From contig CAZFEC010000004.1 of the NCBI GenBank assembly GCA_964517435.1, forward strand, positions 22,608 to 86,607: a stretch of DNA of 64,000 nt, read 5' to 3'. The translations under genes and the position numbers were made by a program. Of the stretch, positions 4,585-62,433 are shown one piece after another. Position 1 is the stretch's first letter. Every line of letters begins with the position of its first letter. This stretch comes from an uncultured Bacteroidia bacterium (GTDB lineage: Bacteria; CAIWAD01; BS150m-G50). Under the pieces are notes generated by a model. The model was not told where the DNA came from and did no database searches. It worked only from the letters and a program-made list of their open reading frames with translations.

Positions 4585-5771
4585 GATTCTTCCTGACTGT
4601 TATCCCTTTTGACTCTCTGTGCACGGGTGTGGAACCGCCGCATCTCCGCCAGCAGGCGGTCGTTCTCCTCCGGGAGACCGATGGTGATACGCAGGCACTG
4701 CGGCAGGCCGAATGCCTGCAGGGGGCGCAGAATGATTCCCTGATGCAACATGTAATCATTCAGCCGTTCCATGGCGGTTTCGTCGCGGCAGACCAGGGTC
4801 ACAAAGTTGGCGGCGCTGTCCAGAATCTCCAGATCCAGCAGGCGCAACTCCCGTGATACCCGTACTATTTCGGTGCTGTTATTGTCGAGTACGCGCCGCA
4901 GGAAGTCGGTGTCGTCCAGTGCGGCTATGGCAGCGGCTTGAGCCGGAATGCTCGGTTCGAAAGGCAACTTGACTTTCATCAGACTGGCGATCAGCGACTC
5001 CTCCGCGAAGCCGTAACCAACGCGCAGCCCGGCCAGACCGTACGCCTTGGAGAAGGTACGCAGGGTGATGACATTGTCGTAGCGGTAAAGCAACGAATCG
5101 GAATAGTCCGGTTTGACGTCGGCGTATTCGAAGTAGGCTTCGTCCAGGATCACCAGCACATTCTCCGGTATCCGTGCGTAGAAAGTGTCGAACTCCTCGC
5201 CACTGAACCAGGAGCCGGTCGGATTGTTGGGATTGGCCAGGTAGATGATCTTGGTGCGGGGATTGATGGCGGCGGCAATCGCCTCCAGGTCATAGCGATA
5301 GTCGCGCAGCGGTATCTGGCGCAGCTTGACGCCACGCGAGTTGACCAGCACGTAGATGCCGATGAAGGAGCCGGCCGAGGTCAGCACCTCTTCGTCGTCG
5401 AAGAGAAAAGTCCGTATAATATTGGCCATGATCCCTTCGGATCCGCTGCCGATGATGACATTATCCGGCTCGACCTGAAAGCGTTCAGCCAGTTTGCGCC
5501 GCAGCTTGTAGCCGCCGATCTCGGGATAGCGGTGCGCCTCCGTCAACGACTCGCAGGCTGCTTTGACAGCCGCTTGCGAAGGCCCCAGCGGATTTTCGTT
5601 GGAAGCGAGTTTGATGATATTATCGAGCCCCAGTTCCCGGCGTACTTCGTCGATCGGTTTCCCCGGTCGGTAGGGAATCAGGTCGGATATGTTCTGCGGT
5701 GTCAGCGGTCTCAGGCTTTCCCCCAGGTTACGTTTTGGCGAAAAGTTAGGGTCTGGACCGGAAAGTTCCAA
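4572..5771 (-). CDS. hisC: Histidinol-phosphate aminotransferase
   Basis: Contains the 'LASNENPLGPS' and 'LIPYRPG' signature regions. 399 aa. Confidence 0.85.
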   Translation of the reverse strand: MELSGPDPNFSPKRNLGESLRPLTPQNISDLIPYRPGKPIDEVRRELGLDNIIKLASNENPLGPSQAAVKAACESLTEAHRYPEIGGYKLRRKLAERFQVEPDNVIIGSGSEGIMANIIRTFLFDDEEVLTSAGSFIGIYVLVNSRGVKLRQIPLRDYRYDLEAIAAAINPRTKIIYLANPNNPTGSWFSGEEFDTFYARIPENVLVILDEAYFEYADVKPDYSDSLLYRYDNVITLRTFSKAYGLAGLRVGYGFAEESLIASLMKVKLPFEPSIPAQAAAIAALDDTDFLRRVLDNNSTEIVRVSRELRLLDLEILDSAANFVTLVCRDETAMERLNDYMLHQGIILRPLQAFGLPQCLRITIGLPEENDRLLAEMRRFHTRAQRVKRDNSQEESCRI

Positions 5772-5796
5772 CTCACTCCTGTGCGGCGGTGATGAT

Positions 5797-5828
5797 AAAA
5801 AAACCCGGAAGGAGGGATCTCTTCCGGG
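5797..5828 (-). terminator. Intrinsic-terminator-like hairpin (CCCGGAAG-loop-CTTCCGGG followed by a T7 run on the − strand)
   Basis: An 8-bp GC stem plus a U-tract read on the − strand. It lies only about 25 nt upstream of the hisC start, so it may be leaky or act as an attenuator. Confidence 0.5.
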
Positions 5829-6043
5829 TGCGGCTAATTGAAAGACGAACTCCTACACAGCCAGAGTCCATCGAAGAGGGATAGTCCTTTATGGTTCACA
5901 CTGCCGCGGATGACTGGACTACTCCACCCGGGCAGCCATTACCTCCCGTGATATCCCGGTTGCACCGGACCGCTACCGCCGCGGCCGGTACCGGGGAGCG
6001 TGCCGGGGACGAACCCCGGCCGCTCCTCGTCCCGGAGTCAGGC

Positions 6044-6169
6044 TTAAATCAGAACCAGCAGGAGTAGAAACAACAGGAACAACGGTGACGACATGATGAG
6101 CATTGGAATGCTGACCCACTTCGTCTCGGTCCAGGCGCGCCTACGGTTTACTAACGTTGTCGCGCTCAT
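6044..6169 (-). CDS. Unannotated 41-aa small membrane peptide (MSATTLVNRRRAWTETKWVSIPMLIMSSPLFLLFLLLLVLI)
   Basis: An ATG is preceded by GAGAGGAGG with a 4–5 nt spacer. The N-terminus is basic and the C-terminus is a transmembrane helix. A TAA stop follows. It was too short for the ORF track. Confidence 0.4.
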   Translation of the reverse strand: MSATTLVNRRRAWTETKWVSIPMLIMSSPLFLLFLLLLVLI

Positions 6170-6793
6170 GTTGCCTCCTCTCTACCGTTGCTGATAGTGG
6201 TGAGAGTGATACCACCCTCCCCTGGCAGCTGGTCGCGTCGGCCCGTTCGTCCAGGTAGCATAGACCAAGTCCTTCTGTCGCTGCCAAACAGTTGGATTTG
6301 GCGGAAAGTGATGGCATACTGGCCTTGCATGCGGACGGTGTCGTGAGGGGAGGGTCGGTCTCTGGTTTCCTTCCTGTCCAGAAGGCCTTCCAATTCGGAA
6401 GGATGTGTCAGGTACCCACAGTACCGGAAGCACCGTTGATCATACCATTTTGATTTTAACCGTGTGCTGAATCATACCGTACAGAAAAAATCATTTTCGT
6501 CAGTAAAATCACTTCCAAAATATATCAAGCAAAGAGCGTGCCATATCGAATATGTAATATTATATTATTAACATAGGGAATATAAGACAACATCTGCAAA
6601 TATGCTGAAGCAGGAATCGAGGGCTATAATCGCGGAAACTGTTCAACGGTGCCAAATTCTGACCAAAGAGTGCCAGATGCTGATTGACAACTGGAAACCT
6701 CAAAAACAGTTGCAGGATCACCGGCGGGAATCTACATTTTGAGTTATGCTCATTCAGAATGTCTATCTTCAAAGGTACGGCGAGCATAACTTC

Positions 6794-6852
6794 ATAGTAT
6801 TTCCCGAAATACTATTATACTGGTAGGGCAGTTTAACTGGGAAATACTATAT
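6794..6852. promoter_or_regulatory. Inverted-repeat element ATAGTATTTCCC|GAAATACTAT plus a distal GGGAAATACTATA half-site (locus A of a 3-locus family)
   Basis: A perfect 10-bp inverted repeat with a 2-nt spacer. A second right half sits about 33 nt downstream. The element lies in the AT-rich region about 200 nt upstream of trxA. Confidence 0.5.
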
Positions 6853-7044
6853 CGCTTCAGAGGGGTTGAGATAAGGCACATCCAGTGTAATCCGCTATCT
6901 ACCCGGTTTTGCTTCGCTCTGATTGATACCGGGCGGCCCTCGTCCATCCTTGAAACCGCGCGAGGTGCGGAGTGATTTCACTCCGTATCGCTTCAGGTCT
7001 GCGCGTCGGCGGGCAATATCGATCGATAATAACTGGAGGGGGAA

Positions 7045-7365
7045 ATGAACGATATAACGGAAAGCACTTTCGCCGCGGAGGTACTGGAAGCCGGGCAACC
7101 GGTCCTGGTCGATTTCTGGGCGCCCTGGTGCGCTCCCTGCAAGGCAATGGCGCCCGTCCTGAAAGAAATCGCTGCCCACTTTGGCAAGCGGCTTAAAATC
7201 TGCAAACTCAACACGGATGAAAGCATGCAGATACCGGCGCAATACGGTATCCGCGGCATACCCACCCTGATCCTGTTCAAAGAGGGTGAAGTTATGGAGA
7301 GGATTGTCGGCGTTCGCCCCCGCCAATTCCTGGAAGAAACTATAGAGCAATACCTGGAGGAATGA
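7045..7365 (+). CDS. trxA: Thioredoxin
   Basis: 106 aa with a 'WAPWCAPCK' active site. Confidence 0.9.
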   Translation: MNDITESTFAAEVLEAGQPVLVDFWAPWCAPCKAMAPVLKEIAAHFGKRLKICKLNTDESMQIPAQYGIRGIPTLILFKEGEVMERIVGVRPRQFLEETIEQYLEE

Positions 7366-7721
7366 TGGGGCTGTTCAGTAAACTCTTCAACAAGGGTCAG
7401 CGGCCGGAGGAACTGGACGATTCCACGATCGACGCGGCAATCGCGGCCACGCATGAAAAACCGCTGCTGCTGCAATTCTTCTCCGATACCTGTCCCCCCT
7501 GCCGGGTGATGTCCGGTGTCGTGCGCGAACTCCAGCAACAGATGCCGGATAAGATCACCGTCGCCAGGGCGAATGTCTCCTATTCGGTGGAACACGCCGG
7601 CCGCTTCGCCATCCAGTCGGTCCCCACGGTCCTGATCTTCCGGCAGGGCAGGATGGTGAACCGCATCACCGGCCTGTTGCCGCTGGATCAATTGAAAGCG
7701 CGCGTCCAGGCGTACGTTTAA
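7362..7721 (+). CDS. Thioredoxin-family protein (CPPC active site)
   Basis: 119 aa with an 'FFSDTCPPCRVM' motif. Its start overlaps the trxA stop (ATGA). Confidence 0.7.
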   Translation: MMGLFSKLFNKGQRPEELDDSTIDAAIAATHEKPLLLQFFSDTCPPCRVMSGVVRELQQQMPDKITVARANVSYSVEHAGRFAIQSVPTVLIFRQGRMVNRITGLLPLDQLKARVQAYV

Positions 7722-7735
7722 CCTTAAGATAGCTG

Positions 7736-9073
7736 ATGTCAGGTTCTGTTTCGAAAGCTCCCGTGATCGTAATCGGCGCTTCGGCGGCGGGAATGGCTGC
7801 GGCGGTGGCGGCCAGACGTGCCGCGCCGGAACAGGAGATCATCCTCCTGGAACGCCTGCCGTACTATGCTTTCGCCAGCTGCGGACTGCCGGAAGTCATC
7901 AGCGGGCGTTTGAACGACATCAGCCCTCTCCTCCAACGCGATCCCTCACAACTGGGTGCCCGCTATGGACTCACCGTGCTGCTGCGGCACGAAGCGGTGC
8001 GGATCCAGCCGGGTCGACGCCGGGTCACCGTTCGCAATCTGGCGCGCGGCACGGAGGAGGAATTTGAATACGCGACGCTGATCCTCGCCACCGGCGCCCG
8101 TCCCGCAGTCCCGGAGCGCGCCGGTTTCCATATCCTCCGCTATCCGCATGAGCTGGAACCATTGCTGCCGCAGCTGCGCGATGACAGTTGCTCCCGGGTG
8201 CATGTCTCGGGCGGCGGCGCGCTGGGATTGACCCTGGTGGATGCCCTGCTGCGCCTGGGCAGGGAGGTGCACCTCTACGCGCGGGATGGGCTCCTGACCG
8301 ATTTCCCGCCGGAGATAACCCTGCCGTTGACGGCGCAGCTGGTGGAACGGGGAGTGATTCTGGAGCAGCGTCAACCCGCTCCCCCCGGCACGGGCGGCGA
8401 ACTGACCCTGCTGGCGCACGGCATTCAACCCTATCTGCCGGCCGGCCTGCAGGTCAATCCCGGCTGGCGGCAGGGAGTGCCAGTCGATCAGCAGTGTCGC
8501 ACCGAGGTGGCTTCCATTCTGGCCTGCGGCGAATGCACCCTCAGGCGGGAAGGGGGGCGGCTGACGCGCTGGACGAGCGGCGCGGCGGCGGCCAACCGCC
8601 AGGGCAAAGTTGCCGGTCGTAACGCGGTGGGAGGCAACGAACACTATCACGGTGTTCACGCCGTTCTGATCACCGTAGCCGGCTGGCAGATCGGACGGGC
8701 CGGTCTTTCCCTGCCCCGGCTCAAGCAGCTGTCGCGGCGACCGGCCACGGTCAGCGGCAGTTTCCGCCTTCGACCGGCCTGGCTAGATGAACGCGAGCTG
8801 TTTATGCGTTTGGATTTTGAACCGATTTCCGGTAAACTGCTGTCGTGCCACGCTTTTGGCCAAAGCGGAGTGCCGGAACGTATCAACCAGATGGCGGGCT
8901 GGCTGCAGGCGGGCGTGTCGCTTCACCAGTTGCACAACCTGGTCCACGCCTATCATCCGGAGTTTTCCGCCCTGACCGATCCCCTGGCCGCCCTGCTGGC
9001 GAAAGCGGACCAGGTAGCACGCCGAGGACGCGAACAGTTGACAACAGTGCCGAGGAATGGTCATGAAAGATAA
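7736..9073 (+). CDS. FAD-dependent pyridine nucleotide-disulfide oxidoreductase (CoA-disulfide reductase / NADH oxidase family)
   Basis: An N-terminal 'VIVIGASAAGMAAA' FAD-binding region. A single redox Cys sits in 'FASCGLP'. 445 aa. Confidence 0.75.
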   Translation: MSGSVSKAPVIVIGASAAGMAAAVAARRAAPEQEIILLERLPYYAFASCGLPEVISGRLNDISPLLQRDPSQLGARYGLTVLLRHEAVRIQPGRRRVTVRNLARGTEEEFEYATLILATGARPAVPERAGFHILRYPHELEPLLPQLRDDSCSRVHVSGGGALGLTLVDALLRLGREVHLYARDGLLTDFPPEITLPLTAQLVERGVILEQRQPAPPGTGGELTLLAHGIQPYLPAGLQVNPGWRQGVPVDQQCRTEVASILACGECTLRREGGRLTRWTSGAAAANRQGKVAGRNAVGGNEHYHGVHAVLITVAGWQIGRAGLSLPRLKQLSRRPATVSGSFRLRPAWLDERELFMRLDFEPISGKLLSCHAFGQSGVPERINQMAGWLQAGVSLHQLHNLVHAYHPEFSALTDPLAALLAKADQVARRGREQLTTVPRNGHER

Positions 9074-9485
9074 ACTGCACGCCATCCAATCCGCTTCCCG
9101 CCTGACCGGAGTGCCGATCGAAGAGATCCGCGACTACGAGAAGGAGGGACTGCTGATACCCCATGTCGCGGCTTCCGGCCGGCGCTGGTTTACCGACAAC
9201 GATCTGCAGAAGATCCGCAGCATTCGGGAACTGCTCCGCCGCGGTAAAACCTTCAATGACATCCTGCGCCTGGCCGCGCTGATTCCCTGCTGGAGTTTTC
9301 CCAAATGTCACCAGCGCGACAAGATCCAGGCTGCCTGCGAGGCGAAGCAGGACTTTCTGCAGCCCTGCTGGATCCTGACCAAGGAACAGCACAACCCGGA
9401 CCAGGAATGCCGTCTCTGTGAAGTCTACCAGCGCATTGAAGACTTCGCGGACCTCAATACCCTGCTGCCGCCGAGCAGCATCTAG
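9057..9485 (+). CDS. MerR-family transcriptional regulator with Cys-rich C-terminal domain
   Basis: An N-terminal HTH 'LTGVPIEEIRDYEKEGLLIP'. The C-terminal half carries about 8 Cys (CW, KCH, AAC, QPC, ECRLC). Confidence 0.6.
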   Translation: MVMKDKLHAIQSASRLTGVPIEEIRDYEKEGLLIPHVAASGRRWFTDNDLQKIRSIRELLRRGKTFNDILRLAALIPCWSFPKCHQRDKIQAACEAKQDFLQPCWILTKEQHNPDQECRLCEVYQRIEDFADLNTLLPPSSI

Positions 9486-57737: not shown

Positions 57738-57806
57738 ACTTCGGAATCGGTATCGAAATCGGTATCGGAATTGGAACATCGATACCGATACCGAGGCCGA
57801 ATCCCG
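57738..57806. repeat. REP-like imperfect inverted repeat built from GGTATCGGAAT / ATTCCGATACC units
   Basis: It lies between the convergent alr and ssb genes. It belongs to the same family as the repeats at 61715-61922 and 62350-62433. It could form a long hairpin, so it is probably a bidirectional terminator. Confidence 0.6.
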
Positions 57807-57925
57807 ACTATTAGCGTCCATTCGCGGTTCTTTTGATGGACTTCAGATCGAGAATAAAAAAGGCTCCCGACGGGAGCCTTTCGTTATGCGCCCAACCCTT
57901 GCACAGGGCCAGGTGAAATTCGATT

Positions 57926-57982
57926 AATAGTATTTCCCACTTAGAAGGTCCTGGTTGTTCGCAACATTTCGAGAAATACTAT
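57926..57982. promoter_or_regulatory. Inverted-repeat element ATAGTATTTCCC-N32-GAGAAATACTAT (locus B)
   Basis: It has the same half-sites and about the same spacing as loci A and C. Confidence 0.5.
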
Positions 57983-60904: not shown

Positions 60905-60960
60905 TAGTATTTCTTAGCTGCTGCGAGACGTGGTGCCATTTCCTTTAGGGAAATACTATA
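60905..60960. promoter_or_regulatory. Inverted-repeat element TAGTATTTC-N34-GGGAAATACTATA (locus C)
   Basis: It lies in the intergenic region immediately upstream of the acpS-like ORF. Confidence 0.5.
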
Positions 60961-61697: not shown

Positions 61698-61714
61698 ATG
61701 CTATGTTGCGTTAT

Positions 61715-61922
61715 CGATTCCGATCCCGATTCCGAATCCCGAGATTGTTCGGCCTCGGTATCGGAATTCGGTATCGTTCCCTATTCCGACTTGTTCGGCC
61801 TCGGTATCGGAATTCGGTATCGTTCCCTATTCCGACTTGTTCGGCCTCGGTATCGGAATTCGGTACCGTTCCCTATTCCGACTTGTTCGGCCTCGGTATC
61901 GGAAATCGGTATCGTTCCTTAC
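61715..61922. repeat. 46-bp tandem repeat (~4 units: TTGTTCGGCCTCGGTATCGGAATTCGGTATCGTTCCCTATTCCGAC) with 30-bp CGATTCCGATCCCGATTCCGAATCCCGAG leader
   Basis: The periodicity is directly visible. The + strand ORF-track entries 61561..61959 and 61703..61972 are translation artefacts of this array. Confidence 0.85.
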
Positions 61923-62333
61923 TCATCCTTCTTCTAGATCAGGATTGGTTTCGCCATAAAGGATTTCACTAGCTTCACGAACAGAATAACCTCTTCCGCC
62001 CAGTCTCGTCAACATGGCAACTATCCTGTCTAGAAGCTTTTTCCCTTCATGGTTCTTCTCCGAACTGATTGCGTTATAGATTTCCAGTACATCCTGAATC
62101 GCTGCGCATTCTAACGCAGAACTCCGAGCGATCTCGAAAAACCGACGTCTGTCTCCTTCTGTAACACGTCCGTTTCCTTCTGCGATGTTTAGCGAAATCG
62201 ATAGTGATGCACGTAATAGTTGATCCTTTGCATGACGATCTGTTCCACCCAGAGTGCCGCAATGGGAGTGAACCCATGAGTTATACTTGAGCGACACTTG
62301 ATAGACATCCAATGTCTCGTGACTGAAAGCCAT
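61923..62333 (-). CDS. Four-helix-bundle protein of the 23S rRNA-IVS/Avd-like family (PF05635-type)
   Basis: 136 aa. Family-typical 'SLSISLNIAEG' and 'RRRFFEIARSSALE' regions. The gene is about 45–48% GC against a ~65% surrounding. Confidence 0.65.
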   Translation of the reverse strand: MAFSHETLDVYQVSLKYNSWVHSHCGTLGGTDRHAKDQLLRASLSISLNIAEGNGRVTEGDRRRFFEIARSSALECAAIQDVLEIYNAISSEKNHEGKKLLDRIVAMLTRLGGRGYSVREASEILYGETNPDLEEG

Positions 62334-62349
62334 AAATAAGCTCTAAGAC

Positions 62350-62433
62350 CGATTCCGATCCCGATTCCGAATCCCGAGATTGTTCGGCCTCGGTATCGGA
62401 ATTCGGTATCGTTTCTTACTCATCCTTCTTCTT
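62350..62433. repeat. Single copy of the same leader + repeat unit + shared tail as 61715-61936
   Basis: Near-identical to the 5' leader and 3' tail of the tandem array. It overlaps the last 6 codons of the MCE gene. Confidence 0.8.

Follow-up and report, generated by a model that had tools for sequence, protein, structure and literature searches.

A predicted enlarged trxA/hisC control region with a candidate sigma54-dependent unit and a REPIN-like repeat in an uncultured Bacteroidia genome

We analysed positions 5772-7044 of a stretch of 64,000 nucleotides (64 kb, here called the window) from contig CAZFEC010000004.1 of an uncultured Bacteroidia bacterium. These positions form a 1273-bp gap that holds no called large gene and separates hisC on the minus strand (TTG start at 5771) from trxA on the plus strand (ATG at 7045). 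On balance, we favour the view that the gap is an enlarged divergent trxA/hisC control region that combines a promoter hub, a transcription unit here called X, read-through into hisC and an inserted repeat. Under this proposal, the control region would have grown from ~0.3 kb, the size found in the relatives L007 and L181, to 1.27 kb. A promoter, TTGCAG-N17-TACATT, would fire rightward into trxA, and a sigma70-like block and a sigma54 promoter would point leftward. The leftward promoters would drive the ~720-nt unit X, probably an activator-dependent, sigma54-controlled non-coding RNA or leader. The hisC gene, its own promoter gone, would be expressed through partial or regulated read-through of the X terminator, and a 118-nt two-hairpin repeat appears to have been inserted right at the trxA transcription start. 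All of these components belong to known kinds. If the proposal holds, a conspicuous piece of 'empty' AT-rich DNA in a compact uncultured genome is ordinary regulatory DNA with conserved promoters, not a foreign or toxin locus, and it offers two leads. First, there is a candidate sigma54-dependent non-coding unit that has apparently captured expression of the hisC operon. Second, there is a short, AT-rich, REPIN-like repeat family outside Proteobacteria, where REPIN-like elements have mostly been described.

Promoters in the AT-rich island

An earlier, sequence-only reading of this DNA had called the gap unusually long, and in a crude gene map no other gap in the window exceeds 765 bp, against the 1273 bp found here. 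Its most striking part, also picked out in that reading, is the AT-rich island at 6430-6900, which has a GC content of 0.393 (z = -5.35 among 470-nt windows), contains the GC minimum of the window and is its strongest compositional outlier. The block at 5830-6043, which had been described as GC-rich and hairpin-prone, deserves the second term, folding beyond its shuffles on both strands (z = -3.89 on the minus strand and z = -3.34 on the plus strand), but not the first, as its GC of 0.64 is no outlier beside a window mean of 0.61 and is equalled or exceeded by ~30% of 214-nt windows. A scan for tRNA and tmRNA found none. The covariance-model scan that had been proposed for the gap gave no RNA family match there: with Rfam 15 at E <= 1, positions 5000-8000 returned only a chance lncRNA match and no T-box, His leader, riboswitch or 6S RNA, and a scan of the whole 64-kb window at gathering scores returned zero matches. 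Nine small open reading frames (ORFs) from the gap had nothing significant in Pfam or NCBIfam, a tenth, ssb, being the control. A perfect 10-nt inverted repeat at 6214-6223 and 6346-6355 is not counted as evidence, as ~0.4 such pairs are expected by chance. Public contigs from at least three marine metagenomes are 100% identical to the window over 10 kb, and among the contigs available for this species no sequence differences were seen.

Comparison with orthologous spacers, another check that had been suggested, reveals a hub and promoters shared with relatives. The closest HisC proteins are 75% identical (L007, L181 and the P0005 contig) or 71% identical (L008 and L167, both labelled Candidatus Delongbacteria); among the matches listed in a metagenome scan with HisC, there were only relatives at <= 60% identity. 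The divergent trxA-hisC order is kept in all relatives examined, with a spacer of 333 bp in L007, ~280 bp in L181, 486 bp in the P0005 contig and ~1277 bp in L008 and L167. When the gap was compared with the L007 and L008 spacers by blastn, short seeds alone were found, and the homology of the hub is seen only with MAFFT and local alignment. In local alignment, window positions 6718-6451 (minus strand) are colinear with L008 4860-5096 (plus strand) at a score of 50, against 21.9 +/- 3.3 and a maximum of 39 for composition-preserving block shuffles. The hub is also partly colinear with the L007 and L181 spacers, and L008 has a similar AT-rich dip beside trxA. As judged from its motifs and alignments, the island is a predicted promoter hub inherited by descent. 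Among the several possibilities that the sequence-only reading had offered for the gap, an extended regulatory region for trxA or hisC is the one supported by the hub alignment, by a trxA promoter found in four lineages and by a conserved sigma54 site.

That trxA promoter, the predicted sigma70-type element TTGCAG-N17-TACATT at 6710-6738 (plus strand), is conserved in four lineages. Searches for promoter patterns covered 180 loci, in which TTGCAGGAT-N14-TACNTT turns up in this species, L007, L008 and L167, each time at the corresponding position, and nowhere else; L181 carries the variant TTGCAGGAT...TATTTT. Beyond the inserted repeat, which makes up the start of the leader, the rest of the trxA 5' untranslated region (6855-7044, plus strand) leads to a Shine-Dalgarno (SD) sequence, GGAGG, at 7035-7039; it has no excess of structure (z = 0.03), and the leaders of relatives are not alignable with it. 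At its far end, the trx operon finishes with a MerR-family regulator (9057-9485) that has a Cys-rich C-terminal half and is kept in every relative. As a candidate redox sensor, this protein might act on the trxA promoter; no operator was identified.

The trxA promoter also bears on a possible 46-codon ORF that had been proposed within the island. The frame exists (6602-6742, plus strand), but we rule it out as a gene: it has no SD sequence, it spans both the trxA promoter and, on the opposite strand, the 6655-6626 block described next, it has no Pfam or NCBIfam match and a codon score of ~0, and the public assemblies shown have no gene call in the interval from trxA to the 41-codon ORF discussed below.

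On the hisC strand, a block reading TTGGCA-N18-GATTAT (6655-6626) scored 9/12 in the promoter scan. Its L008 counterpart is TTGACA-N17-CAATAT, the two having the spacer TTGAACA(G/A)TT in common, and the block would be either a sigma70-type promoter for unit X or an activator-binding site. Some 85 nt downstream on the same strand lies TGGCACGCTCTTTGC (6543-6529, directed toward hisC), which matches the sigma54 -24/-12 consensus TGGCAC-N5-TTGC exactly and is the single such match in 64 kb. Among the 180 loci, exact matches are confined to copies of this species, L008 (4999-5013) and L167 (3978-3992), and in the latter two the element has the matching relative position on the same strand and in the same order. 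Outside the window, ~5 kb past its right end, TGGCACGAGTTTTGC matches the consensus exactly as well (L189 2480-2494, minus strand; position x of L189 corresponds to window coordinate 71698 - x). The gene whose ATG follows ~96 nt downstream encodes a 321-aa protein that has a type IX secretion system (T9SS) sorting tail. This second site suggests that sigma54 promoters are in use in this genome. The 680-bp divergent spacer between topA and this T9SS-tail gene holds, besides TGGCACGAGTTTTGC, a copy of the two-hairpin repeat (copy D, below) and a lone TAGTATTTC arm. Flanking genes encode the T9SS sorting domain, which places the organism in the FCB group.

Unit X and the expression of hisC

From a predicted sigma54 start at ~6517, unit X would extend ~720 nt on the minus strand to an intrinsic terminator at 5829-5797. 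A terminator-like hairpin had been noted there (5797-5828), and closer inspection bears it out: an 11-bp stem with perfect 9-nt arms at 5803-5811 and 5821-5829 is followed by U7 at 5797-5803, with a folding energy of -16.6 kcal/mol. The automated terminator scan passed over this hairpin, having a loop limit of 3-8 nt where the arms are 9 nt apart. The 5' part of the unit (6170-6517), which begins at the predicted start, folds with z = -2.38 over 6170-6440 and includes a block at ~6492-6451 (GATTTT...CGGTATGATTCA...GGTTAAAATCA, its end reading GGT(T)AAAATCA) that is shared with L008 and lies 40-75 nt past the predicted start. The 3' part, 5830-6043, is a run of local GC hairpins and is not conserved.

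L008 has an equivalent unit of ~640 nt, whose terminator (5632-5662) was read by eye and then folded. Conservation between the two covers the first ~70-100 nt only. Beyond the first ~100 nt, no DNA-level similarity was found between the window and L008 units, 5830-6043 included; tblastx of one unit against the other gave a best E of 0.012, which we judged to be noise; the L008 unit has no coding signal and no SD-led ORF; and an Rfam scan of the L008 spacer gave sub-threshold chance matches only. The body of unit X has at most a weak coding signal in the window, folds into local hairpins and is fast-evolving. The unit is best read as a putative non-coding RNA or leader under sigma54 control, possibly with sigma70 control as well. 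The earlier suggestion that the gap could hold a small RNA is plausible in the form of unit X, for which a predicted promoter, a conserved 5' part and a terminator are all present.

The strongest alternative is that X is an mRNA. On the minus strand at 6044-6169 lies a 41-codon ORF with an AGGAGG SD sequence 4-5 nt before its ATG, a basic N-terminus and one C-terminal transmembrane (TM) helix (hydropathy of the C-terminal 19-mer, 2.8), just as the sequence-only reading had described it; the word 'unannotated' in that description does not hold, as public metagenome assemblies call the ORF as a gene. X would then be the message of a real 41-residue, tail-anchored membrane protein made under sigma54, its frame preceded by a 5' leader of 350 nt and followed by 215 nt of structured 3' sequence. 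Ideal spacing of the SD sequence, the TM helix, the downstream terminator, the predictions of gene callers and a codon score that is the highest of the six frames speak for this possibility. That score, however, is ~0.03-0.09, far under the 0.2-0.6 of real genes. Moreover, the peptide matched only itself when compared with 5.8 billion clustered proteins and again in an exhaustive HMMER scan of 1.84 billion representatives. Absence from related genomes had been named in advance as a mark against the ORF, and the homologous L008 unit has no SD-led counterpart or coding signal. We also count chance against it: ~6-8 non-genic ATG ORFs of at least 40 aa with this SD per 128 kb of strand translate to ~0.15 expected in the gap. 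Taken with these points, a peptide-encoding X strikes us as possible but doubtful.

A bolder version would make X a previously undescribed, sigma54-activated long regulatory RNA of a Delongbacteria-like, uncultured marine lineage in the FCB group, with a conserved 5' functional domain and here also encoding the 41-aa peptide and gating hisC through its terminator; we think this rather improbable. We return to X as a non-coding RNA or leader, and to its relation to the gene that follows it.

The TTG at 5771 is the only in-frame start upstream of the conserved HisC N-terminus and falls 25 nt after the U-tract of X. In L007, L008 and L181, hisC has a common set of signals, namely a promoter, ATTTCATTGAAT-N17-TA(G/A)TTT, a ribosome-binding site, GGAGC(A/T)G, and a GTG start. 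In the window, hisC has no ATTTCATTGAAT-type promoter, no GGAGC(A/T)G and no GTG start, the orthologous codon being CTG, and the hisC call here (5715-5771) exceeds those of relatives by 33 residues, at 399 against 366 aa. A promoter scan of 5772-5900 found no promoter-like site. In L008, X is a separate unit and is followed by hisC's own promoter. The loss of the proximal promoter, ribosome-binding site and GTG, together with a terminator 25 nt before the TTG, suggests that the hisC operon probably relies on read-through from X. Partial or regulated read-through of the X terminator seems the most likely mode of its expression. It looks as if the upstream unit had recently captured hisC, not as if a sensor had evolved.

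Such a sensor would consist of 5830-6043 and the terminator acting together as a ligand-, tRNA- or protein-responsive, riboswitch-like attenuator that controls hisC. The position of the terminator, 25 nt before the sole hisC start with no space for a promoter, and the folding of 5830-6043 (z = -3.89) would suit this idea. We nevertheless consider it unlikely, as no Rfam family, T-box and His leader included, matched at E <= 1, the block has no counterpart in L007, L181 or L008, and the plus strand folds nearly as well (z = -3.34), as expected of GC-rich palindromic DNA; by inspection only, no convincing antiterminator pairing was seen. A T-box-like GGGUGG at ~5925-5936 was set aside as too distant from the terminator and without covariance-model support.

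The two-hairpin repeat

Two inverted repeats in the island had been listed as separate curiosities: GTTATGCTC...GAGCATAAC at 6742-6751 and 6782-6791, and ATAGTATTTCCC...GGGAAATACTAT at 6794-6805 and 6839-6850. Both are present, but they are not separate, as a single 118-nt repeat accounts for the two. This copy, A (6737-6854, plus strand), comprises a first hairpin at 6742-6791 and a REPIN-like hairpin, ATAGTATTTCCC-N33-GGGAAATACTAT, at 6794-6850. It starts one or two bases past the trxA -10 and forms the start of the trxA leader. Copy B (58040-57921, minus strand), which is located after the stop codon of ssb but before its terminator, is identical to A at 91/121 positions (75%), with an alignment score of 114 against 20 +/- 3.4 for shuffles and an nhmmer E of 3e-34. 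Copy C (60905-60958), between a HAD gene and the next gene, is the 54-nt REPIN-like hairpin alone, TAGTATTTC-N36-GAAATACTA, with no strand assigned. Copy D, a divergent third two-hairpin copy, precedes the topA promoter at a site ~5 kb outside the window.

The window has 7 occurrences of the arm TAGTATTTC, where 0.07 would be expected. Doublets of the form TAGTATTTC-N36/37-GAAATACTA, with a 13-bp stem, are found at 6795-6849, 57928-57981 and 60905-60958 and at L008 5685-5738; their spacer is variable in sequence and 36-37 nt in length. Altogether, four doublets and spare arms were found in the ~80 kb sampled, and all the copies seen are extragenic. The stems have been maintained by paired changes: across A, B and D, which are three sequences only, both partners have changed in 6 of the 21 stem pairs, with pairing in 96.8% of cells, a level of compensation that 1 of 500 shuffles reached (slid controls, 0-1). 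Within the REPIN-like helix, 3 of 12 pairs are compensatory in the same three copies.

Copies also differ between relatives. L184 and L186, whose ssb is 87% and 73% identical, respectively, have no copy B at the orthologous site, and both retain the ssb terminator. This terminator (57856-57884, minus strand; GGCTCCC...GGGAGCC and a T-run) is conserved in sequence at 73-87% SSB identity, making the boundaries of the copy B insertion definable. In L184, the orthologous HAD and next genes overlap, such that the spacer that holds copy C is lineage-specific. We infer that the repeat is mobile, and its 54-nt hairpin looks REPIN-like.

Could the doublet instead be a double operator for a DNA-binding regulator? 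In favour, A, B, C and the L008 copy, which span two genera, have eight arms between them that do not differ in the 9-nt core TAGTATTTC, with the fixed 36-37-nt spacing, and copy A lies between divergent promoters. An operator fits poorly, however, with copy B in the ssb 3' region between convergent genes, with copy C inside an operon, or with B and C being lineage-specific insertions, and copy D alters both arms concordantly, keeping the stem rather than the sequence. We therefore regard an operator as quite unlikely and continue to treat the doublet as part of a REPIN-like repeat. Other identities for the TAGTATTTC arms, namely an outward or inward -10, an extracytoplasmic function (ECF) sigma factor promoter, an integron attC, a dif/lox-type site and a TA-flanked miniature inverted-repeat transposable element, were rejected for lack of conserved partner elements and for misfits of spacer or length. 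A scan of viral contigs for the doublet gave 10 matches, about the chance estimate for 18 specified bases, and was discarded.

Several other repeats and mobile features were seen in and around these loci. In L008, the stretch from the REPIN-like doublet to the hisC promoter contains CCTGAAGCGTTGCCAC three times in tandem (5746-5795); of the three short-read contigs examined at this array, L169 and L170 end ~60 nt downstream (5852) and L168 ends inside it (5764). An IS30-like transposase (HTH_38 + rve; L188 20896-21374) lies ~6 kb left of the window start and has no evident tie to the hairpin repeat. At 61698-62415, a gene of the 23S_rRNA_IVP family (PF05635; 61923-62333, minus strand) is flanked by a 46-nt tandem repeat of 3.8 units (61745-61918). 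Related CGATTCCGAATC repeats occur at 61715-61742, 62349-62377 and 57741-57776. In L184, a BrnT/CopG toxin-antitoxin pair takes the place of the PF05635 gene in the slot from MlaD to the HAD gene.

Weighing the evidence and comparison with known systems

Two further possibilities raised by the sequence-only reading fare worst. A type I toxin-antitoxin pair, in which the 41-aa peptide would be a hydrophobic toxin opposed by an overlapping antisense antitoxin RNA, would draw on the peptide being small, hydrophobic and basic at its N-terminus and on the mRNA being long and structured, but we judge it very improbable: no antisense RNA gene is evident, with no plus-strand promoter-like site reported near 5950-6250 and no plus-strand terminator seen by eye beside the ORF, there is no second copy in the window, no homologue and no counterpart ORF in L008, and the conserved parts of the unit are its promoters and 5' end, not the ORF. 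An equally remote prospect is that the AT-rich island is left over from DNA acquired by horizontal transfer; its GC of 0.39 within a 0.61 genome (z = -5.35) invites the idea, but we reject it because the island is vertically conserved, being colinear with the L008 spacer and partly with those of L007 and L181, because L008 has the same kind of AT-rich dip beside trxA and because plasmid and phage collections gave no match, and no integrase, tRNA or direct-repeat borders were found.

Several observations weigh against our reading of the gap as an enlarged control region with a non-coding, sigma54-dependent X. First, searches of the 64 kb for GAFTGA, ESELFGH and RpoN-box motifs found no rpoN or enhancer-binding protein gene, so that the argument for sigma54 use is one from motif conservation. 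Second, X is seen in two lineages only, with ~100 nt conserved, and at 720 nt it is long for a regulatory RNA; it could be no more than spacer DNA in decay, left behind a promoter from which hisC was formerly expressed. Third, the 41-aa ORF holds the best SD sequence in the gap, which could make X an mRNA. Fourth, an operon that looks essential is oddly placed 25 nt behind a strong terminator unless a good deal of transcription reads through, and a weak -10-like TATCAT over the U-tract could give hisC a start of its own. Finally, no RAYT or other transposase for the repeat was found among the small window proteins scanned or the flanking called genes (~80 kb), and the repeat has a different context each time, being 5' of trxA in one case, 3' of ssb in another and ahead of the topA promoter in a third, which argues for a DNA-level element.

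As a candidate sigma54-dependent RNA gene, X has several counterparts. CrcZ/CrcY of Pseudomonas and Qrr of Vibrio are sigma54-dependent regulatory RNA genes. In enterobacteria, the regulatory RNAs GlmY/GlmZ have both sigma70 and sigma54 promoters, according to work cited in PMC3162934. With such genes, X shares a consensus -24/-12 element, the absence of a conserved ORF, an intrinsic terminator at its end, a sigma70-like element nearby and a 5' end that is the conserved part. It differs in length, being ~720 nt where sigma54-dependent RNAs measure 50-400 nt, and it has no sequence or Rfam kinship with them. A further difference is that the X terminator abuts hisC, so that the unit may double as a leader.

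In that role, X can be set beside the his and trp attenuators, T-boxes and riboswitch platforms. Like them, it places an intrinsic terminator directly upstream of a promoterless biosynthetic gene; unlike them, it has no His-rich leader peptide and no Rfam match, and the arrangement is not conserved in relatives. For the 41-aa peptide, the comparison systems are the type I toxins TisB, ShoB and Ibs and AcrZ-like small membrane proteins. The peptide resembles these in size, in its single TM helix and in its charged N-terminus, and departs from them in having no homologues, no antisense partner and no conservation.

For the repeat, the comparison is with REPs and REPINs. REPs have a GTAG head, and the doublet here is without one. 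The doublet is also shorter, measuring 54-55 nt overall where the spacings in Pseudomonas are 71-110 nt, and is AT-rich where REPINs are GC-rich; its arms, except in copy A, are not palindromes, and in copies A, B and D a further hairpin lies upstream of it. The ends of REPINs are conserved and inverted, the spacer between them is conserved less well, and compensatory changes are seen (PMC3116915); REPINs and REP sequences are mobilised by RAYT transposases (PMC3116915, PMC3337134). The doublet, similarly, pairs two short conserved sequences in inverted orientation across a less conserved spacer of fixed length and forms a hairpin with compensatory changes. Its copies are likewise extragenic and scattered, differ in insertion between relatives and belong to a family that persists across related lineages.

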